From IMG/VR virus record IMGVR_UViG_3300032829_000007: a stretch of 64,000 bases of DNA; one strand, written 5' to 3'. Below, in pieces: positions 3,711-23,449 of this stretch (positions within the stretch are counted from its first letter, which is position 1; the number at the start of each line of letters is the position of its first letter). The position numbers and the translations under genes were made by a program. Source of the DNA: an uncultured virus (IMG/VR IMGVR_UViG_3300032829_000007) (lineage: Duplodnaviria > Heunggongvirae > Uroviricota > Caudoviricetes). A model generated the notes under the pieces. It was not told the origin of the DNA. It ran no database searches and saw only the letters and a program-made list of their open reading frames with translations.

Positions 3711-4496
3711 CTATTGTATATTATAATTTTCTAAACTTAATTTATTGGCTATCGCTTTTTCTTTAAGCTCAAATAATTTTTTTAAATAGCCAGTATTTCT
3801 TAAAACTTTAAAAACTAAATTTTCAATAGAAAATTCACCTTCTTTTTGAAGACCACTTTGTCTTAATTTTTTAATTTTATCTTTTATTTTATCAATTATT
3901 AATAATAATTTATTATTATCTGTTTCTGATTCTAAAGAATCTATTTTATCCATAATATAAGATGCTTTTTCAAAAATTTTATTAATATCTATTGGAATCA
4001 TTTGATAAATAGGTTTTAATATCCATTTATCATTTATTAATGAATAAATTCCTGTTGCTGCATTTACTTCATTAATATCTTGTACATACATTTCAACATC
4101 ATGACCTTTAATTTTAATATCATATTTTTCTGACCATAATGATTTTTTTGTATCTAAATATTCATCAACAAATTCTTTATTATTTGAAATTTGAGAAGTA
4201 TCCATTAAAATGTGAACATCTAAATCTGAATAATTTGTATAATTATAATTAGCTAAACTGCCAACAAATAAAATATCATTATATATTAATTTATTTATTT
4301 TAGCAAATTTAATAAATAATAATGCATTTTTTAATAAAATTTTTCTGATTTCAGGTTTTAATTTATTATCTTTTGTCCAAAATAAAGGATTTAATTCTCT
4401 TTTCATTGAATATTGATCTATATTTAATGAATCTAAATCAATGCCTTCATTAATAAATTTAATAATATTTTTTTTATTTAAAAATATATTTTTCAT
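3711..4496 (-). CDS. Nucleotidyltransferase-superfamily protein
   Basis: GS..SDLDVHI (GS-x-DxD) motif plus downstream DVEMYVQD strand, Pol-beta-type NTase pattern. Confidence 0.75.
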   Translation of the reverse strand: MKNIFLNKKNIIKFINEGIDLDSLNIDQYSMKRELNPLFWTKDNKLKPEIRKILLKNALLFIKFAKINKLIYNDILFVGSLANYNYTNYSDLDVHILMDTSQISNNKEFVDEYLDTKKSLWSEKYDIKIKGHDVEMYVQDINEVNAATGIYSLINDKWILKPIYQMIPIDINKIFEKASYIMDKIDSLESETDNNKLLLIIDKIKDKIKKLRQSGLQKEGEFSIENLVFKVLRNTGYLKKLFELKEKAIANKLSLENYNIQ

Positions 4497-6307: not shown

Positions 6308-8407
6308 GTGAAAGAACAATGCTTAAATGGTATAATTCAAAAAAATCTTGCTATAGATATTGATATAACAAATTCAAATTCATGGAATTTAAATACTGGA
6401 TATACAGTAAATAGTTTAGTAAATTGGAACAATAGAAAAACTAATGACTTAAATTTATTAGATTTTGGATTAACAGGATTTGATGATGGAAAAACAAATT
6501 CTATGAATAATAATTTATTATTAACATTAAATGATAAATTTACATTATATAGAATAGGATACAATAATGTTATTAATCCGATAACTGGCGAAACAAGTGG
6601 TTATACTGCAAATACATTATATGATTTATTTCCTTTAACAGGTATTACAACTGGATTAACAGGAAATTATTTTTATTTAACTGGTGGCTATTTACAAGGT
6701 TTTTTTAAATTATTTGATTATAATTATGAATTATTTCCTTCAAGATATAATAATGGTATAACAATAGAAACATTATTAAATATTAATACAAATAGTGAAG
6801 GAATATTTTATTTAATGGGATTAAGAGCCGAAGATAAATATAATCCTTATTTTAGTGGTGAAACATCTTTAATAACTAATACTACAAAAATTGTTAATAA
6901 TACAATAGGTAATATTTATAATATTAATGGTATTTTAACAAGTAAAGGAAATGATCTTATTGCAATTGATGAAGAAGAATCTGCAAGTAATGCATTTGTA
7001 TTTTTTGAAGACTCAAGAAAAATAATAGATACAATTCCAAATCAAATAAATAATTTAAAAAACAATATTATTGCTTTTGAAATTACAAATGATAAAAAAA
7101 TTGGATATAGATATATTGACTCAAATGGTAACTATGTTTCAAATGTTTCAACAAATAAAATTCAAAATTTAGGATGGAATATAATAAGTATTGTTTTTAA
7201 TCCATATGGCTTAATTGATAAATATGATTCAAATTATGAAACATGCTACGATTTAAGAAAAGGTGATTTAATTTTTTATGTTAATGGTAGAAGATTTTGG
7301 ATAATTAATAATTTTGAAGAATTTTATTTTAAAAATATAAATAATGATAAAGAAAAACAAATAGGTGTACCATATAATATTAGTTGGGGTGGCGGATCAT
7401 ATGGTTTAAAATATTCTTATCATTATGATTATACTATTTATGATTTATATAATGAAAATAATTTATTATATATTAATAATAAGTTTATTCCAACATATAA
7501 TCCAACATTAACAATATGTGAATTTACAGGTAATACTGATCAATATCAAGCTGGCTTATCATTAAGTGCAAATACTGTAAGTTATAAAGATTATGATAAT
7601 TGTAATAATCCAATTCCTTTAACTGTAATGGATATTATGTATACTGGTGTAACAGGACAAACAAATAAAAATTTCTTTATAAAATTTGATCAATTAATAA
7701 AAGTTAGACCAAATATAGAATATAATATTGAATTATTATTTAATGATGTTGAAATATTTAATGGTTCAGATAGTGAAATATCTATTGTAATATCTGGTAA
7801 TACTGATTATACTATTATTCAAAATACAAAATATATTAATAATCCAATAATATCATTAAATAATATTGTTATTCCAGCAGATCAAGAAAGTGGCTTTTAT
7901 AGTGATCGTGAAGAAAATGAGTATACAAAAAATGGAATTATTTATGATGCTATAACTGGTTATCCTGTTATTAGAGGATATGGAATTATGAATAAAGGTG
8001 TTAATTATAATGAAAATCCAATATTTACAACAAATACTTCAACAAATATTAATGGTTGGAAATCTATTAATTTTAAATTTATTGTTAATAATTATAATAT
8101 AGATTTTTCAAAATTTTATTTTGGATTTATTATTAAATCAAATTCATATTTAAATGCTAATAAACATATATATATTAAAGAATTTAAATATACTGCTGCT
8201 GATATATTAGTTAAAGATATTAATAAAGAAAATTTAATAATTGAAAAAAATTTTAATTCAAATTTTATTGGAGGAATACAAAAATTAAGAATTTATGATA
8301 GAGCATTAGAATCAAATGAAATTTTAAATAATGCATATTATGAAAGTATTTCAAATATAAATTATAATATTTTGATTAATAGAGGTGGAAGAATTATTAA
8401 TATTTAA
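6308..8407 (+). CDS. Putative virion structural protein with LamG/concanavalin-like beta domain
   Basis: 699 aa, N/T/G-rich; WNIISIVF..LIFYVNG and FIGGIQKLRIYDRALESNEI LamG-type motifs. Confidence 0.65.
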   Translation: MKEQCLNGIIQKNLAIDIDITNSNSWNLNTGYTVNSLVNWNNRKTNDLNLLDFGLTGFDDGKTNSMNNNLLLTLNDKFTLYRIGYNNVINPITGETSGYTANTLYDLFPLTGITTGLTGNYFYLTGGYLQGFFKLFDYNYELFPSRYNNGITIETLLNINTNSEGIFYLMGLRAEDKYNPYFSGETSLITNTTKIVNNTIGNIYNINGILTSKGNDLIAIDEEESASNAFVFFEDSRKIIDTIPNQINNLKNNIIAFEITNDKKIGYRYIDSNGNYVSNVSTNKIQNLGWNIISIVFNPYGLIDKYDSNYETCYDLRKGDLIFYVNGRRFWIINNFEEFYFKNINNDKEKQIGVPYNISWGGGSYGLKYSYHYDYTIYDLYNENNLLYINNKFIPTYNPTLTICEFTGNTDQYQAGLSLSANTVSYKDYDNCNNPIPLTVMDIMYTGVTGQTNKNFFIKFDQLIKVRPNIEYNIELLFNDVEIFNGSDSEISIVISGNTDYTIIQNTKYINNPIISLNNIVIPADQESGFYSDREENEYTKNGIIYDAITGYPVIRGYGIMNKGVNYNENPIFTTNTSTNINGWKSINFKFIVNNYNIDFSKFYFGFIIKSNSYLNANKHIYIKEFKYTAADILVKDINKENLIIEKNFNSNFIGGIQKLRIYDRALESNEILNNAYYESISNINYNILINRGGRIINI

Positions 8408-10520: not shown

Positions 10521-11321
10521 TTAATTATTTATATTATATTTTTTATTCCATTTATAAATTTTTAATAATAATTCATCAAGTGTTAATGAGCATCTATAAT
10601 TTTTTTTAACATTATCATTATGTAACATTAAACTACAATTAGCAGGATGTTTTATTATTTTAGGATCTATATTATTTTTAAAACCATAATTAATTGAAAT
10701 CATATGATCTCTACTTACACCATTTAAATTATCTCCATAATTTTTTGCTTTATACCAATCATATTTTTCAATTAAATTAATTTCAAATTCATTAGGATAA
10801 TCAGATATTCTAAAATCAAATTGGCAATCTTTATAATATTTTTGATATGAAGTTTTAATTTTTTTATAATACATATTTTTACAATCCATTGAACAAAATT
10901 TATTAATTCTTTTTTTAAAAATAAGATATTTTCCACATTCCTTACATGATTTAGGATTTTTTATATATTCTGAATAAGTGTCGCATATTTTTAATCTTTT
11001 ATATAATGCTTCTCTCATATTTTTTTTACCTTTTTCACTAAATATTTTTTTAAATTTACCTTTTTTATTTTTATTATTAAAAGAAGCTGAACAACTTTTT
11101 GAACAAAATATTTTTCTACAATCTCCTTTAATAATTTTTCCACATTTTTTGCAATATTTAATATTTGCTTTCTTATTATTTTGTGAACAATTAATAGAAC
11201 AAAAATGTTTTCTACCTTTTTTTTCACTTCTATTAAATTCACTACTAGTTTTATTAAATTGTTTATTACAATATGCACAAGTAACTGAGATTAATTTTCT
11301 ACCATCTTTCCAATTTTTCAT
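10521..11321 (-). CDS. Zn-finger-repeat, HNH-like homing endonuclease
   Basis: Repeated CxxC..FCSxxC modules; C-terminal SRDHMIS..HPANC..HNDNVKK. Confidence 0.7.
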   Translation of the reverse strand: MKNWKDGRKLISVTCAYCNKQFNKTSSEFNRSEKKGRKHFCSINCSQNNKKANIKYCKKCGKIIKGDCRKIFCSKSCSASFNNKNKKGKFKKIFSEKGKKNMREALYKRLKICDTYSEYIKNPKSCKECGKYLIFKKRINKFCSMDCKNMYYKKIKTSYQKYYKDCQFDFRISDYPNEFEINLIEKYDWYKAKNYGDNLNGVSRDHMISINYGFKNNIDPKIIKHPANCSLMLHNDNVKKNYRCSLTLDELLLKIYKWNKKYNINN

Positions 11322-12042: not shown

Positions 12043-12074
12043 AAAATAAAAAACCATCATTTTTGATGAGGGTT
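12043..12074 (-). terminator. Attenuator terminator in front of the 11-tRNA operon
   Basis: AACCCTCAT-CAAAA-ATGATGGTT followed by TTTTATTTT. Confidence 0.7.
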
Positions 12075-12100
12075 CTAATAAATCTTATTTAAATATTAAA

Positions 12101-12187
12101 TTAAGAATATAGTTTTCCCTCATGGTAAAATCCTCTTGTTTTATCACCATTATTAATCGCTACCATATTCCAATTTTTTGTTTGCAT
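12101..12187 (-). CDS. Leader peptide MQTKNWNMVAINNGDKTRGFYHEGKLYS (putative tRNA-sensing attenuator)
   Basis: 28-codon ORF between promoter and terminator; codons match the downstream tRNA anticodons; ATGAGGG is complementary to the terminator 5' arm. Confidence 0.75.
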   Translation of the reverse strand: MQTKNWNMVAINNGDKTRGFYHEGKLYS

Positions 12188-12236
12188 TTTTTAAAATTTA
12201 AATTCGATAATCTACAATAGTAGAAAATTTTCGATA

Positions 12237-12268
12237 CAAAGATAATTATAATTTTTTAATTATCCAAA
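12237..12268 (-). promoter_or_regulatory. Bacteroidota primary-sigma type promoter
   Basis: TTTG-N20-TATCTTTG matches the -33 TTTG / -7 TAnnTTTG consensus. Confidence 0.75.
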
Positions 12269-12450
12269 TAATTTTTAAACTATTTTTATATAAATACGTA
12301 AAATTTTATAAAAGGTTACGTATTTTATTATATTTTATAAAAGATATTTATAAGCTGAAGATCTATCAGATTCAACTTCTTCTTTTGTTAAAATTTTAAA
12401 AACTATTTTTTTATTATTTTTTATTTTTTTCATTATTAAAATATTATTAG

Positions 12451-13493: not shown

Positions 13494-13562
13494 ATTTTTA
13501 TATTTTAGGGTGTTAGGTGGAACTTGAAAATAAAAATTCAAGTATTTATAATAAATTTATTT

Positions 13563-14231
13563 ATGATCCCTCTTTTTGATATATCAAAAATTAATGAATA
13601 TAAATATAATAAAAAATTATCATTTCAATGTGAATATTGTGGAAATACTTTTACAGTAAAAAAAGATCAAGTAATGAAAGCCTTAAATAATCATTTAAGA
13701 ATTAAAATAAAATATTGTTCAAATAAATGTAGACTTAAAAGTAATGATAAAACTATTCAAATTAATTGTACACAATGTAAAAAATTATTTAAAAAACAAC
13801 ATCATAGAATTAGAAAAAATAATTTTTGTTCACAATCATGTGCAGCTATATATAATAATACACATAAAATAAAAGGTTATCATAGATCTAAACTTGAAAT
13901 TTATCTTGAAAATGAATTAATTAAATTATATCCTTTTTTAGAAATAAAATTTAATGAAAAAGAAATGATTAATTCAGAATTAGATATTTATTTTCCATTA
14001 TTTAAACTTGCAATTGAATTAAATGGTATATTTCATTATGAACCAATATTTGGTAAAAATAGATTAAATCAAATAAAAAATAATGATCAACGTAAATTTC
14101 AAGCTTGTTTAGAACAAGGAATTGAACTTTGTATTATAGATACATCACAACAAAAATATTTCAAAGAACAAACATCTAAAATTTATTTAGATATTATAAA
14201 AAATATTATAAATAAAAATTTAAATTTATAA
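13563..14231 (+). CDS. Zn-finger plus PD-(D/E)XK (Vsr/DUF559-like) endonuclease
   Basis: CxxC..(Y/F)CSxxC modules; SKLE..ELDIYFP..LAIELNGIFHY; ATG 13563 preferred because AGTATTTATA lies at 13541-13550. Confidence 0.75.
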   Translation: MIPLFDISKINEYKYNKKLSFQCEYCGNTFTVKKDQVMKALNNHLRIKIKYCSNKCRLKSNDKTIQINCTQCKKLFKKQHHRIRKNNFCSQSCAAIYNNTHKIKGYHRSKLEIYLENELIKLYPFLEIKFNEKEMINSELDIYFPLFKLAIELNGIFHYEPIFGKNRLNQIKNNDQRKFQACLEQGIELCIIDTSQQKYFKEQTSKIYLDIIKNIINKNLNL

Positions 14232-14553: not shown

Positions 14554-14558
14554 TTATA

Positions 14559-14595
14559 AAAATAAAAAAACCTTCTGAAAATTTTCCAGAAGGTT
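14559..14595 (-). terminator. Attenuator terminator in front of the 6-tRNA operon
   Basis: AACCTTCTG-GAAAATTTT-CAGAAGGTT followed by a T tract. Confidence 0.8.
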
Positions 14596-14626
14596 TATAT
14601 TGTTTTATTATAAAATATTTTATTTT

Positions 14627-14704
14627 TTAAACAACAATAGAATTCCTTCCGGCAAATTTTGCTGGTTGTTCAGGGCGTTCTATGTGTTGAAAAAACATTT
14701 TCAT
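14627..14704 (-). CDS. Leader peptide MKMFFQHIERPEQPAKFAGRNSIVV (putative tRNA-sensing attenuator)
   Basis: 25-codon ORF; codons 6-14 CAA CAC ATA GAA CGC CCT GAA CAA CCA match the six downstream tRNAs; CCGGAAGG pairs with the terminator arm CCTTCTGG. Confidence 0.8.
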   Translation of the reverse strand: MKMFFQHIERPEQPAKFAGRNSIVV

Positions 14705-14728
14705 TTCTTTTATTATTAAATTCAGATG

Positions 14729-14760
14729 CAAATATAAATATAATTTTTTAAATTTGCAAA
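14729..14760 (-). promoter_or_regulatory. Bacteroidota primary-sigma type promoter
   Basis: TTTG-N20-TATATTTG. Confidence 0.75.
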
Positions 14761-18967: not shown

Positions 18968-21900
18968 ATGGCTTTAGAAAAAAATGATTTTATTAAGTAT
19001 TCTTATGATGAAGTTTATAATGCAACATTAAATTATTTTAACAATGATATATTAGCAACAGATGTATGGATTAAAAAATATTGTTTAAAAGATTCTGAAG
19101 GAAATTTATATGAAAAAACACCTGATGATATGCATAAAAGAATTGCTAAAGAATTAGCAAGAATTGAATTAAAATATCCAAATGCATTAAATGAAAATAA
19201 AATTTATGAAACATTAAAAAATTTTAATAGAATAGTACCACAAGGATCTCCAATGAGTGGAATAGGTAATAACTTTCAAATTATAAGTTTAGGCAATTGT
19301 TTTGTTACCGGTAATGAAAAAGATTCAGATTCTTATGGCGGAATTATGAGAATTGATCAAAATATTGCGCAGTTAGAAAAAAGAAGAGGTGGTGTTGGAG
19401 TTGATCTAAGTTTTATAAGACCAAATAATTCACCAGTAAAAAATAGTTCATTAACATCAACAGGCATTGTTCCTTTTATGGAAAGATACTCAAATACTAC
19501 AAAAGAGGTTGGACAAGGTAATCGGCGCGGAGCTTTAATGCTATCATTATCAGTTAAACATCCAGATGCGGAAAATTTTATTGATGCAAAATTAGAACAG
19601 GGTAAAGTTACTGGTGCTAATATATCAATTAAGGTAGATGATGAATTTATGAATTGTGTTATTAATAATAAAGAATATATTCAACAATATCCAATAGATA
19701 GTAATAATCCAAAATATATAAAAAATTTAAATGCTAATAAATTTTGGAAAAAATTAATGCATAATGCTTGGAAATGTCTTCCATATAATACATATATTAA
19801 TATATTATATAATAATAATCCATTAAAAATAAAAATTGGAGAACTTTATGAAAATAAAGAAAAATATAAAAATTCTAAAATTTTATCAATAAATCTTTCT
19901 AATTTAAAATTAGAAAATAAAGAAATTATTGATTTTCAAAAATATAAAAATAATAAAAAAATTATATCATTAAAAACAAAAAATAATAATTTTGTTAGTT
20001 CAACTGAAGATCATATTTTTTATATATTAAAAAATGAAAAAATAATTGAAACAAATATTAATGATATTAATATTGGAGATTTTATATTAACATCAAAAAA
20101 AAATATTGAAAATAATTATGGCTGTGATTATATTAAATTAAATTTAGAATTTTTTGAAAAAAGAGATGGAATTTGGTTTGAAAATATACCCGTAAATTTA
20201 AAAGATGATAAAATAAAAAAAATATTAAAAAAATATAAAAATGATGAATATATATTAAATGGATATATTAGAAGAAAATTAATACCATTAAATAGTTTTA
20301 ATTTAATAAAAGATAATTTAAATATTGTTGGAGATATTTATATTAGACCAAATACCACAAATAATTCTGAAATGAATTATTCTATTAATAATTTTCATAT
20401 TGATGAAAATTTATCAAGATTTTTTGGCTTATGGCTTGCTGATGGATCATATCATGGATCAAATGTTAGAATAAGTAGTAATGAAAAAGAAATTAATGAT
20501 TATAAAAAAATTTATGATTATATATCAAAAAAATTTAAATGTAATTATTCTATTAATAAAGAATATACTGTTGAAATTGGATCAAAATTTTTAGTTAATT
20601 TAATGAAATCTTTAGGATTTTGTTATGTTAATGGAAATAAAATTTTACCAAAATTTATTAAATCAATGAGTAATAATAATATTTCTAATTTTATTGGTGG
20701 ATTTATTGATGGTGATGGTACTGTTAGTAAAGAAGGTACAATAACAATAAATCAATCTAATTTTGAATTATTAAATGATATTAAAGAATTATTAATGTAT
20801 TTTAGCGTTTATTCATCTATATATCCTAAAATAATTAAAGAAGGTAAAATAATAAAAAATAATTATATATTATCAATACAAAAATTTGATAATAAAATTT
20901 TTATTAATGATATTAAATTATTAATAAAAAATAAATATAATAGAATAAAAACATCAAAAATAAGTGTTAAAACAGCTATTCCTATTCCTCCTATACGTAA
21001 ATTAATAGAAAATTGCAAATTTAAAAATAGAATGTATTTTTATGATGGTGGTATTAGTAAATATACGTTAAAAAAACATTTAAATTCTAAAAATATACAT
21101 AATACATTTTTAGAATCATTATGTAATGAAGATATTTATTTTGATAAAGTAATTGAAAAAAAAGAAGAAAATAATCAAGAATATGTTTATGATATTACAG
21201 TTAAAGATAATCATACTTTTGTATTATCTAATGGTATTATTCTTTCAAATAGTGCAGAACCAGGAATATTGTTTTGGGATACTATTATTAATGAATCTGT
21301 TGCAGATTGTTATTCCGATTTAGGATTTAAAACTGTATCTACAAACCCATGTCAACCGGCATGGGCTAAAATTTTAACTCCAAAAGGTATTAAAGAATTA
21401 AAAGATGTAAATATTGGAGATGAAATTTGGAGTTCTGAAGGATGGACTAAAATTATTAATAAATGGTCTACTGGTATAAAAAAAGTTTATAAATATTCAT
21501 TAGATTTTAATAAAAAAATACCTAATACTAATTTAGAATATGCATTTTATGGTACAGAAAATCATAAAATAGTTGATATTGGAAAAAAAATAGAAGTAGA
21601 TAATGCTAAAAATATTGATTGTTTTTTAAATAATGTATTCGATGATTTTAAAACTAATTTTACAGATATATTATCTATTGAACCATTAATGATAAAAAAT
21701 AAAGAATTTATTTCAGAAGAAGAAGTGTTTGATATTACTGTTGATAATAATTCTCACACATATTGGACACAAGGTTGTAATGTTTCTAATTGTGGCGAAT
21801 TACCTTTATGTATTTCTGATAGCTGTAGATTATTATTATTAAATTTATTTGGTTATGTTATAAATCCATTTACTAAAGATTCATATTTTAATTTTGATTT

Positions 21901-23449
21901 ATTTAAAAAAGATGTTTATATTGCTCAAAGATACATGGATGATATAAATGATTTAGAAATAGAAAAAATTGAATCTATTTTAAACAAAATTAAATCAGAT
22001 CCAGAAGATGAATTTATAAAATTATATGAAATTGATTTATGGGAAAAAATTAAAGAAAAATTAATTTTAGGAAGAAGAACTGGTTTAGGAATTACTGGTG
22101 AGGGTGATATGTTAGCTGCATTAGGATATAGATATGGAACTGATGAAGCAACAGATTTTTGTGTAAATGTTCATAAGATATTAAAATTAGAAGCATATCG
22201 TTCATCTGTTGATATGGCTAAAGAAAGAGGAAAATTTTCTATATATGATTCAATAAGAGAATTAAATAATCCTTTTATAAATAGAATCAAAAATGAAGAT
22301 ATTGAATTATATAATAATATGGTTAAATATGGGCGTAGAAACATTGCATTATTAACTATTGCTCCTGCTGGTAGTGTAAGTATTTGTACTCAAACAACAT
22401 CTGGTATTGAACCAGTATTTTTACCAACATATAAAAGAAGAAGAAAAATTAATCCACAAGAAAAAAATATAAGAATTGATTTTATTGATCCAGAAGGTAT
22501 TGCGTGGCAAGAATATAATGTATTTCATCATAAGTTTGAATTGTGGCTTAAAATAAATGGATATGATATTGAAAAAGTTAAATTAATGTCTAAAGAAGAA
22601 ATTGATGAAATAATTAAATTATCTCCATATTATAAAGCAACATCAAATGATTTAAATTGGGTTAAAAAAATTGAAATGCAAGGAAAAATCCAAAAACATG
22701 TAGATCACTCTATATCAGTTACTTGTAATCTTCCTTCAGATGTAAATGAAGAAATAGTTTCTAAAGTATACGAAACAGGTTGGAAATTTGGATGTAAGGG
22801 TGTAACGATTTATCGTGATGGTTCAAGAAATGGTGTGTTAGTATCTAATGATAATAAAAATGAAAAAACAAATAATAATATAAATGAAAATAATGCACCT
22901 AAACGTCCTAAAAAATTAAAAGGTGATATTATTAGATTTCAAAATAATTCTGAAAAATGGATTGGAGTTGTTGGCTTATATAAAGATAAACCATATGAAA
23001 TATTTACAGGTAAATTAGAAAATGGTTTATCTGTATTACCATCTTATGTAAAAACATGTGAAATAGTAAAAAATATAATTGAAGATGAAAATGGTAGCAA
23101 GAAAAAAAGATATGATATTGAATATATAGATTTAGAAGGAAAAAAACAAATTTCAACTGGTTTATCGCATAAATTTAATCCTGAATTTTGGAATTATGCA
23201 AAAATGATTTCAGGATTATTACGTCATGGTATGCCATTAATATCATTATATAAAACAATTGATTCATTAAATTTAGATGATACAAATTTAAATACATGGA
23301 AAGCTGGTATATTAAGAATCATAAAAAAATATATTAAGGATGGAGAAAAATTAAGTGGATATAAATGTCAAGAATGCGGAAGTGATCAACTTGAATTTAA
23401 AGAAGGATGTCTTACTTGTATGAATTGTGGAAATAGTAAATGTGGATAA
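18968..23449 (+). CDS. nrdJ: Class II (adenosylcobalamin-dependent) ribonucleotide reductase with two inteins
   Basis: NCFV, RRGA, STNP/CGE split by an intein, TIAPAGS, SGIEP, KGVTIYRDGSR, C-terminal Zn ribbon EGCLTCMNCGNSKCG; no beta subunit gene nearby. Confidence 0.9.
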   Translation: MALEKNDFIKYSYDEVYNATLNYFNNDILATDVWIKKYCLKDSEGNLYEKTPDDMHKRIAKELARIELKYPNALNENKIYETLKNFNRIVPQGSPMSGIGNNFQIISLGNCFVTGNEKDSDSYGGIMRIDQNIAQLEKRRGGVGVDLSFIRPNNSPVKNSSLTSTGIVPFMERYSNTTKEVGQGNRRGALMLSLSVKHPDAENFIDAKLEQGKVTGANISIKVDDEFMNCVINNKEYIQQYPIDSNNPKYIKNLNANKFWKKLMHNAWKCLPYNTYINILYNNNPLKIKIGELYENKEKYKNSKILSINLSNLKLENKEIIDFQKYKNNKKIISLKTKNNNFVSSTEDHIFYILKNEKIIETNINDINIGDFILTSKKNIENNYGCDYIKLNLEFFEKRDGIWFENIPVNLKDDKIKKILKKYKNDEYILNGYIRRKLIPLNSFNLIKDNLNIVGDIYIRPNTTNNSEMNYSINNFHIDENLSRFFGLWLADGSYHGSNVRISSNEKEINDYKKIYDYISKKFKCNYSINKEYTVEIGSKFLVNLMKSLGFCYVNGNKILPKFIKSMSNNNISNFIGGFIDGDGTVSKEGTITINQSNFELLNDIKELLMYFSVYSSIYPKIIKEGKIIKNNYILSIQKFDNKIFINDIKLLIKNKYNRIKTSKISVKTAIPIPPIRKLIENCKFKNRMYFYDGGISKYTLKKHLNSKNIHNTFLESLCNEDIYFDKVIEKKEENNQEYVYDITVKDNHTFVLSNGIILSNSAEPGILFWDTIINESVADCYSDLGFKTVSTNPCQPAWAKILTPKGIKELKDVNIGDEIWSSEGWTKIINKWSTGIKKVYKYSLDFNKKIPNTNLEYAFYGTENHKIVDIGKKIEVDNAKNIDCFLNNVFDDFKTNFTDILSIEPLMIKNKEFISEEEVFDITVDNNSHTYWTQGCNVSNCGELPLCISDSCRLLLLNLFGYVINPFTKDSYFNFDLFKKDVYIAQRYMDDINDLEIEKIESILNKIKSDPEDEFIKLYEIDLWEKIKEKLILGRRTGLGITGEGDMLAALGYRYGTDEATDFCVNVHKILKLEAYRSSVDMAKERGKFSIYDSIRELNNPFINRIKNEDIELYNNMVKYGRRNIALLTIAPAGSVSICTQTTSGIEPVFLPTYKRRRKINPQEKNIRIDFIDPEGIAWQEYNVFHHKFELWLKINGYDIEKVKLMSKEEIDEIIKLSPYYKATSNDLNWVKKIEMQGKIQKHVDHSISVTCNLPSDVNEEIVSKVYETGWKFGCKGVTIYRDGSRNGVLVSNDNKNEKTNNNINENNAPKRPKKLKGDIIRFQNNSEKWIGVVGLYKDKPYEIFTGKLENGLSVLPSYVKTCEIVKNIIEDENGSKKKRYDIEYIDLEGKKQISTGLSHKFNPEFWNYAKMISGLLRHGMPLISLYKTIDSLNLDDTNLNTWKAGILRIIKKYIKDGEKLSGYKCQECGSDQLEFKEGCLTCMNCGNSKCG
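19775..21250 (+). mobile_element. Intein 1 with LAGLIDADG homing endonuclease (492 aa)
   Basis: AWK|CLPYNT..STEDH..GLWLADGS..GGFIDGDG..VYDITVKDNHTF..ILSN|SAEPG. Confidence 0.9.
21350..21790 (+). mobile_element. Intein 2, mini-intein (147 aa)
   Basis: TNP|CQPAWAKILT..GTENHK..VFDITVDNNSHTY..VSN|CGE. Confidence 0.9.

Follow-up and report, generated by a model that had tools for sequence, protein, structure and literature searches.

In a very AT-rich giant phage, a short open reading frame (ORF) and a terminator hairpin lie between a promoter motif and a block of eleven tRNA genes, and we consider it likely that they form a ribosome-mediated (leader-peptide) transcription attenuator that controls the block. 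Judged by its sequence, the phage probably restricts production of these tRNAs to times when ribosomes are slow to read the matching codons. This arrangement, here called unit 2, has a sister (unit 1) in the same stretch of DNA, and the same design occurs in six other phage genomes or contigs.

Anatomy of the units and their codon match

The window, by which we mean the whole 64-kb stretch of DNA that was analysed, has a G+C content of about 20% and encodes phage-type proteins, among them a ribonucleotide reductase, several HNH endonucleases and members of PHROG families of unknown function. The closest matches at the DNA level are the uncultured huge phages LR756500, LR756501/3 and LR745206 and the Lak megaphages of Prevotella. 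Wetland metagenomes contain the same DNA. The leader of unit 2 is identical in two other metagenome runs (X2 and X3), so that no natural variation can be read there.

On the minus strand, the elements of unit 2 follow one another in the order promoter, ORF, antiterminator/terminator and tRNAs (Table 1). A regular-expression scan of the window for TTTG-N18-22-TAnnTTTG found 11 sites. Eight are intergenic and lie shortly upstream of an ATG; two of the eight precede the tRNA blocks (12268 and 14760) and six precede other ATG starts. A scan for sigma-70 promoters was uninformative, with 59 sites in the window and 50.8 expected. The TTTG box at -33 and its spacing we take to be those of a Bacteroidota sigma-A promoter. 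Because the TAnnTTTG motif is the -7 box of sigma-A promoters in Flavobacteria/Bacteroidetes, where mRNAs also lack Shine-Dalgarno sequences (PMC9723704), the host of the phage is probably a member of the Bacteroidota. Upstream of the unit 2 leader ORF there is an A-rich stretch without a Shine-Dalgarno sequence, which fits such hosts as described in that study (PMC9723704). Given that the T tract directly adjoins tRNA-Ile (12040), there is no room for a separate promoter between the two, and transcripts of the tRNAs must pass through the terminator.

Table 1. Positions of the elements of units 2 and 1 and of the tRNA genes behind them
Feature	Position	Strand	Remarks
Promoter, unit 2	12268-12237	-	TTTG-N20-TATCTTTG; Bacteroidota sigma-A type (-33 TTTG / -7 TAnnTTTG); regular-expression scan of window
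Leader ORF, unit 2	12187-12101	-	28 codons and stop; MQTKNWNMVAINNGDKTRGFYHEGKLYS
Regulatory codons 3-19, unit 2	12181-12131	-	15/17 cognate to the ten downstream anticodon species
Antiterminator 5' strand, unit 2	12123-12117	-	ATGAGGG, codons 22-24; pairs with CCCTCAT at 12072-12066
Terminator hairpin, unit 2	12075-12051, T tract to 12041	-	GAACCCTCAT-CAAAA-ATGATGGTTT; adjoins tRNA-Ile
tRNA genes of unit 2, first part	12040-11403	-	ARAGORN/Rfam; Met, Trp and Asp at relaxed thresholds only
tRNA-Ile-GAT	12040-11967	-	
tRNA-Met-CAT	11960-11891	-	weak call
tRNA-Val-TAC	11879-11808	-	
tRNA-Asn-GTT	11799-11725	-	
tRNA-Arg-TCT	11720-11646	-	
tRNA-Lys-TTT	11637-11565	-	
tRNA-Trp-CCA	11558-11487	-	weak call
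tRNA-Asp-GTC	11479-11403	-	weak call
HNH endonuclease ORF interrupting the block	11321-10521	-	phrog_23051, phrog_1271
tRNA-Gly-TCC	10513-10439	-	ARAGORN/Rfam
tRNA-Lys-TTT (second)	10433-10362	-	ARAGORN/Rfam
tRNA-Thr-TGT	10359-10287	-	ARAGORN/Rfam
Sister unit 1, whole	14760-14554	-	promoter, leader, antiterminator, terminator, then tRNA-Pro
Promoter, unit 1	14760-14729	-	same motif as unit 2 promoter
Leader ORF, unit 1	14704-14627	-	MKMFFQHIERPEQPAKFAGRNSIVV
Regulatory codons, unit 1	14689-14663	-	
Antiterminator strand, unit 1	14652-14645	-	CCGGAAGG
Terminator, unit 1	14596-14568	-	perfect 13-bp stem
tRNA block, unit 1	14553-12450	-	Pro-TGG, Ile-TAT, His-GTG, Glu-TTC, Gln-TTG, Arg-ACG
HNH ORF interrupting unit 1 block	13524-14231	+	
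ORF interrupting unit 1 block, between the two tRNA blocks	13299-12535	-	

The first-pass annotation had read eleven tRNA genes, with the anticodons listed in Table 1, behind the unit 2 leader. All eleven are called by ARAGORN at a relaxed threshold (-ps80), compared with 6 of 11 at its default setting and 8 of 11 by Rfam at gathering score. Three of the calls are weak: tRNA-Trp reaches 23.6 bits in Rfam, where the gathering score is 29, and neither tRNA-Met nor tRNA-Asp has an Rfam match at E<=1. The cloverleaves of these three are plausible but degenerate, and they occupy precisely the spaces left by the firm tRNAs.

Codons 3-19 of the unit 2 leader read ACA AAA AAT TGG AAT ATG GTA GCG ATT AAT AAT GGT GAT AAA ACA AGA GGA, exactly as first annotated, and under strict wobble the claimed 15 of 17 are cognate to the block, GCG and GGT being the exceptions. 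A run of 14 codons is enough to include every one of the ten anticodon species, even those with rare codons (Trp, Met, Val-GTA and Arg-AGA). When random 28-codon ORFs were simulated from the codon usage of the window, a 14-codon cover or better arose once in 100,000, and across the 127,996 six-frame codon positions the unit 2 leader is alone in having a cover no longer than 20 codons (strict wobble). By simulation and by six-frame scan alike, the cover is far beyond chance.

A match of this kind could also come from a random short ORF in an AT-rich spacer, situated beside the terminator of an upstream transcript. The ten species of the block read 46.7% of the codons in the window's long ORFs, and because the tRNA set thus covers about 46% of codon usage, the enrichment over the whole leader is only P=0.063 (17 of 27 codons cognate, binomial). 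Under relaxed wobble, moreover, the HNH ORF at 11321 ties with the leader, its initial 14 codons also covering all ten species. These points speak for coincidence; against them stand the single cover in 100,000 simulations and its uniqueness under strict wobble, a second unit in the window (P<1e-5), and the recurrence of the design, with 0 of 100,000 permutations in each of two independent tests. We regard chance as very improbable.

In the tie under relaxed wobble, Met is supplied free by the start codon of the HNH ORF. Derivation of the unit 2 leader from the HNH N-terminus was considered and rejected, as the tripeptide KNW is all that it has in common with the ORF at 11321. No diverged ortholog of the leader was found among the window relatives, metagenome loci and viral contigs. 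Two viral contigs match a back-translated TKNWNMV pattern; we dismissed both matches as chance, for they lie inside unrelated coding sequence with no tRNA array after them (in L037 a single relaxed ARAGORN tRNA call follows at about 1.2 kb; L038 has none).

In the sister leader, codons 6-11 (CAA CAC ATA GAA CGC CCT) name each of the six tRNAs of block 1 once, and if U34 reads CCT the cognate run extends without a gap from codon 6 to codon 14. These six species account for just 17% of codon usage, with CGC at 0.1 per thousand. None of the 100,000 simulations gave the six-codon cover, and the window has no second instance of it. Each leader is specific to its own block: only 3 of the 28 codons of leader 2 are cognate to block 1, and leader 1 covers just 6 of the 10 species of block 2.

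Alternative folds of the leaders

The unit 2 terminator is weak (-6.1 to -6.8 kcal/mol), with one internal mismatch and a T tract broken by an A. An antiterminator pairing of ATGAGGG with CCCTCAT and an inner TCTTA/TAAGA helix had been proposed, and both appear in the predicted fold of the transcript cut before the terminator 3' arm (hereafter the pre-3'-arm fold). With 7 Watson-Crick pairs against a mismatched terminator stem (-6.8 kcal/mol), the antiterminator is able to compete. The strand and its own terminator arm form a duplex of -11.1 kcal/mol; with the leaders of other units the mean is -5.6 kcal/mol.

We folded the leader with and without a 29-nt ribosome mask, which reaches 15 nt upstream and 13 nt downstream of the first A-site base, and took the mean pairing probability of the terminator stem as the terminator probability. 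In the equilibrium fold of the naked leader the terminator is in place (0.84). Its probability is 0.02-0.30 with the A site stalled on any of codons 3-16, rises through 0.46 (codon 17) and 0.72 (codon 18), and is 0.89-0.94 with the ribosome from codon 19 to the stop. The stall position therefore switches the predicted terminator, and the cognate codons end where stalling no longer prevents the terminator. In keeping with this, cognate codons make up 13 of the 16 at which a stall leaves the antiterminator free, versus 4 of the 11 at which it is blocked.

The pre-3'-arm fold gives a similar picture, with the 5' arm paired upstream at 0.61-0.70 for stalls at codons 2-18 and at 0.11-0.45 for codons 19-28. 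The first-pass annotation held that a ribosome at the end of the leader blocks the antiterminator. The fold predicts this for codons 19-28, but a ribosome on the stop codon masks the antiterminator strand in part only (5' arm paired 0.58). For a leader free of ribosomes the prediction is also that the antiterminator forms first (0.69), so that an untranslated leader would read through. The terminator of unit 1 falls to 0.49-0.79 only, for stalls at codons 4-11, at equilibrium; a ribosome on its stop codon leaves the antiterminator strand unmasked (0.79, pre-3'-arm fold).

Units of the same design in other phages

Relatives of the ORF at 13299-12535 occur in a 148.5-kb IMG/VR contig (G001) and in metagenome contigs. 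Promoter-leader-terminator-tRNA units were seen in G001 by eye and then by a uniform pipeline, which was run likewise on the tRNA regions of LR756500 and LR756501 and afterwards on Lak-C1 and LR745206. Homolog loci in LR756500 (L001) and LR756501 (L002) have only two tRNAs and one tRNA nearby, respectively. Five of 11 metagenome loci around homologs have tRNAs (L019-L023), and attenuator units are found in L019, in L020 and, by eye, in L022; L019 duplicates G001 and was excluded from counts. One relative has a conserved motif between terminator and tRNAs that could be a second promoter.

The uniform pipeline called tRNAs with ARAGORN (-ps90), searched upstream of them for a hairpin of -6 kcal/mol or lower with a T tail, and took as leader the longest ATG ORF ending at most 95 nt before the hairpin. 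The hairpin-to-tRNA limit was 150 nt at first, at which L012 and L022 were missed and found by eye; both were recovered at 300 nt. Across seven phage genomes or contigs (LR756500, LR756501, LR745206, Lak-C1 and three uncultured contigs) the pipeline yields 28 candidate units, of which about 4 (units 1, 4, 18 and 19, with weak hairpins and short ORFs) are probable false positives that were kept in all counts.

Several of these leaders look like textbook attenuators in that they dwell on a single amino acid. The leader MTTTQQIQQQQINQTD in LR745206 precedes three Gln tRNAs, the Lys-rich MMNATLKYGKTTKSYKKYKMKKDCV in G001 precedes Lys tRNAs, and MNNILHINLLNSLCLLGIKLIG in LR756501, which uses all six Leu codons, precedes five Leu tRNAs. 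Others are mixed, such as a second LR756501 leader containing SKHSKHFSSSSKWF, with Trp, His, Phe, Lys and Ser tRNAs downstream, and a Lak-C1 leader containing MHPVCGMVHMFPCGGGRPMS, with His, Pro, Arg, Ser, Cys and Met tRNAs downstream. The orthologs of unit 1 covary with the tRNAs behind them: the window has QHIERPEQP with Pro, Ile-TAT, His, Glu, Gln and Arg-ACG, and G001 (PQHQPQQ) and L020 (QPQPQQHPQ) both have only Pro, His and Gln tRNAs.

The match between leader and block was scored in two ways. For 13 units from four phages, each scored against the codon usage of its own phage, the leader's own tRNA set is the best match in 10 of 13 cases and never below second; the mean z is 3.3 for the own block and 0.03 for other blocks (Fisher combined P=1e-21), and the observed sum was reached in 0 of 100,000 permutations of the leader-to-block assignment. 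When all 28 units from the seven phage genomes or contigs are normalised against the other leaders only, 15 of the 28 leaders match their own set best, with a mean z of 2.62 versus 0.02 and again 0 of 100,000 permutations.

Over the 28 units, the last 12 leader codons pair with their own terminator 5' arm at a mean of -9.5 kcal/mol and, when leaders are exchanged, at -5.3 kcal/mol (0 of 100,000 permutations). Of the 492 codons at which a stalled ribosome spares the antiterminator strand, 241 are cognate; of the 313 at which the ribosome covers it, 87 are (Fisher P=2e-9). This placement supports the direction from stall to read-through.

Hairpins in other units are strong canonical terminators of -12 to -19.6 kcal/mol with T tracts. 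In three G001 units the equilibrium terminator stays at 0.9 or above at every ribosome position, and the pre-3'-arm (kinetic) fold was used instead; in that fold a stall-dependent antiterminator forms in all four other units, namely sister unit 1 and the three G001 units. Given the stability of their equilibrium terminators, the switch in these units would have to be largely kinetic. In the E. coli trp leader, the choice between terminator and antiterminator is likewise mainly kinetic.

Might the hairpin instead act on the tRNA precursor, as an element for its processing, its stability or a pause, with constitutive tRNAs and an ORF that is an independent small-protein gene or is untranslated? 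The weakness of the unit 2 hairpin and its contact with the tRNA 5' end, where RNase P acts, would suit such a role, whereas the strength of hairpins in other units would not. It also leaves unexplained why, unit after unit, the codons of the ORF match the block behind it, why the 3' end of the ORF is complementary to the 5' arm of its own hairpin, and why cognate codons avoid the zone in which a ribosome blocks that pairing. We consider such a precursor element quite unlikely.

Proposed mechanism and relation to known attenuators

If unit 2 works as an attenuator, transcription would start at the promoter at 12268-12237 and the 28-codon leader would be translated while RNA polymerase moves ahead, which supposes coupling of transcription and translation. 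Whenever any of the ten charged tRNAs is scarce, the ribosome would stall within codons 3-19 and leave ATGAGGG free to pair with CCCTCAT; no terminator would form and the polymerase would enter the tRNA genes. With all ten plentiful, the ribosome would reach codons 19-28 and the stop and cover the antiterminator strand, the hairpin and T tract would form, and transcription would end 1-2 nt before tRNA-Ile. The presumed outcome in vivo is that just these tRNAs have their supply under negative feedback, in which new tRNAs would speed decoding and close the switch again. Sister unit 1 would control the other six tRNAs in the same manner.

The physiological signal may be phage codon demand, host tRNA loss or host anticodon nucleases. 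Amino-acid starvation would also open the switch, since stalling depends on charged tRNA. The same mechanism might thus respond to general translation capacity or amino-acid starvation and serve as a timing or host-state switch rather than as tRNA feedback. From what is known of the trp and his attenuators, starvation for any of the ten amino acids would suffice, and 18 of the 20 amino-acid types are present in the whole unit 2 leader. The leader codons, however, follow the tRNA species of their own block and not amino acids generally: the leaders of units 1 and 2 are disjoint, and matches reach the level of isoacceptors, with four or six different Leu codons before matching Leu tRNAs. Amino-acid starvation would, moreover, be unrelieved by making extra tRNA. 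A general starvation or timing signal seems unlikely to us.

Why phages carry tRNA genes and what controls them are questions of long standing, and the suggestions under debate include codon compensation, host tRNA loss and evasion of anticodon nucleases (PMC10264068). If the leaders work as read, the regulatory logic of the phage itself would report the supply of tRNA, codon by codon, as limiting during infection. Attenuation would then extend to tRNA genes, with the product being the sensed molecule and direct feedback acting on up to ten species, and the leaders would reveal which tRNAs share one transcription unit. The design could be tested with reporters, and in Bacteroidota it may provide a natural means of sensing how fast chosen codons are decoded. 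The device is not peculiar to one genome, since Lak-C1, a megaphage of Prevotella in the human gut, carries it, as do phages of 460-735 kb from other habitats.

We tentatively raise the possibility of a modular supply on demand in giant phages of Bacteroidota, in which each tRNA block has its own test-strip ORF, reading just the codons of that block, and is triggered by host tRNA loss, whether through anticodon-nuclease defence or shut-off of the host by the phage, so that the leaders would act as counter-defence sensors. In that case they would be more than housekeeping feedback, each block being switched on separately upon slow decoding of its codons.

The literature searched covers leader-peptide attenuation for amino-acid operons, synthetases, resistance genes and the like, with most subscription journals outside its coverage, and in it we found no description of attenuation of tRNA genes; a term search in a survey of bacterial attenuators (PMC2965389) likewise gave none. 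At the level of sequence, unit 2 has every feature of ribosome-mediated attenuation, applied to tRNA genes. Behind it stand 11 tRNA genes and an HNH ORF, and not genes for amino-acid biosynthesis, transport or aminoacyl-tRNA synthetases. This non-classical class of genes is a point of novelty and not a mechanistic requirement.

The closest parallels are the enterobacterial attenuators of amino-acid operons, such as trpL, hisL, pheL and leuL and the multivalent thrL and ilvL. As in these, a promoter-proximal short ORF is rich in regulatory codons, an intrinsic terminator precedes the regulated genes, and the antiterminator uses the terminator 5' arm and is blocked by a ribosome at the end of the ORF, so that a stall leads to read-through; pheL is described as a leader-peptide attenuator of this kind (PMC3082878). 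Unlike these systems, unit 2 would regulate tRNA genes rather than biosynthetic enzymes, and the sensed molecules would be its own products. It samples up to ten tRNA species, mostly once or twice each, in place of runs of one codon, and it is phage-borne in a Bacteroidota-type context, with a TAnnTTTG promoter and without a Shine-Dalgarno sequence. Curated Rfam models of the Trp, His, Thr, Leu and Phe leaders gave no match at gathering score in the window.

Attenuation also reaches the translation apparatus. E. coli pheST has a leader-peptide attenuator, and in Streptomyces lividans such attenuators precede alaS, thrS and trpS (PMC8079986). In unit 2 as in these, the translation apparatus would be regulated and the signal would be the availability of charged tRNA; synthetase attenuators regulate the charging enzyme of one amino acid, whereas unit 2 would regulate several tRNA genes at once.

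T-boxes, which are typical of Firmicutes, regulate genes for synthetases, transporters and biosynthesis and use one specifier codon. They resemble unit 2 in a tRNA-dependent choice between terminator and antiterminator within the leader and in codon-anticodon recognition. Unlike them, unit 2 has many codons in an ORF and presumably needs a ribosome. A cmscan of the whole window gave 14 Rfam matches at gathering score, all of them tRNA, and the identification of unit 2 as a T-box riboswitch was rejected for lack of a match. One could still imagine that the leader RNA uses its codons to capture tRNAs by itself, without a ribosome, as it does display the codons of the regulated tRNAs. Seventeen consecutive in-frame codons between an ATG and a stop fit translation instead, T-boxes have their single specifier, and neither a T-box nor another riboswitch family is among the matches in the window, which together make ribosome-free binding hardly credible next to a translated leader.

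The comparison nearest to the probable host is with Flavobacterium, in which leader-peptide attenuation is described upstream of amino-acid biosynthesis operons (PMC9723704). Unit 2 is similar in that its likely host phylum uses leader-peptide attenuation, TAnnTTTG promoters and mRNAs without Shine-Dalgarno sequences, and it differs in that the attenuators described there precede amino-acid biosynthesis operons, not tRNA genes.

Unit 1 and its possible end

The leader of the sister attenuator that precedes the six-tRNA block (unit 1), MKMFFQHIERPEQPAKFAGRNSIVV, covers with codons 6-11 all six tRNAs of its own block (Pro, Ile-TAT, His, Glu, Gln and Arg-ACG), and the codons used include the very rare CGC and CAC. 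The terminator is perfect over 13 bp, and its CCTTCTGG pairs with CCGGAAGG. Unit 1 may end at a hairpin that follows tRNA-Arg-ACG and precedes the promoter of unit 2, the putative attenuator of the 11-tRNA block; a T tract is absent from this hairpin on the minus strand.

Features of the window and of related loci (L numbers: related phage genomes or metagenome contigs)
Feature	Position	Strand	Remarks
Unit 1	window 14554-14760	-	promoter as in unit 2, leader ORF, terminator
10-bp hairpin AAATACGTAA...TTACGTATTT	window 12295-12330	-	between tRNA-Arg-ACG and unit 2 promoter
Ribonucleotide reductase large subunit	window 18968-23449	+	1493 aa; PHROG profile matches
TTTG-N19-20-TAnnTTTG promoter-like motifs	window 14816, 24253, 29432, 34559, 34958	+	short distance 5' of ATG starts
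Same	window 58884, 14760, 12268	-	short distance 5' of ATG starts
Motif TTTGACATGTTGGAAT	L005 about 6420-6450; L006 about 1850-1880; L022 about 4060-4080
Variant motif TTTAACATTTTGAAAT	L012 about 1185-1200
CTA- or TTA-anticodon tRNAs	L005 13160; L009 8280; L016 1586 and 1664; L030 4629

Related phages and host

Many of the leaders in different phages (L005, L006, L010, L020, L022 and L031-L035) start similarly, with MKTIN, MKTLN, MKNLN, MTT.N, MNTITN or MRTIFN, which could reflect common descent or a favoured A-rich initiation context. Relatives also share TTTGACATGTTGGAAT, conserved 3' of the attenuator terminator and 5' of the first tRNA. This motif might act as an additional promoter or as a signal for processing; neither it nor its variant occurs in the window. 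Some relatives encode amber suppressor-type tRNAs (anticodon CTA), and the Prevotella megaphage Lak-C1 has a tRNA with TTA, which suggests stop-codon recoding in these phages; no tRNA with either anticodon was seen in the window. The promoter-like motifs of the window have an A/T-rich spacer in common and point to a Bacteroidota host.

A possible insertion and the HNH ORFs

PHROG profiles match the ribonucleotide reductase large subunit at residues 28-245 and 805-1492 only, and the approximately 560 unmatched residues inside it may represent an intein or other insertion. Each tRNA block holds an HNH ORF. In that of unit 2, the first 14 codons of the ORF (MKNWKDGRKLISVT; 11280-11321, minus strand) likewise include codons for each of the ten tRNA species, provided that U34 can read entire four-codon boxes. 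The cover may have arisen by chance, as the start codon provides Met; alternatively, translation of the ORF may be linked to the same ten tRNA species. In the block of unit 1, a contig from X3, a metagenome run holding the same DNA, joins 13493 directly to 14237 and therefore lacks the plus-strand HNH ORF (13524-14231). This ORF is thus a presence/absence polymorphism, as expected for a homing endonuclease.
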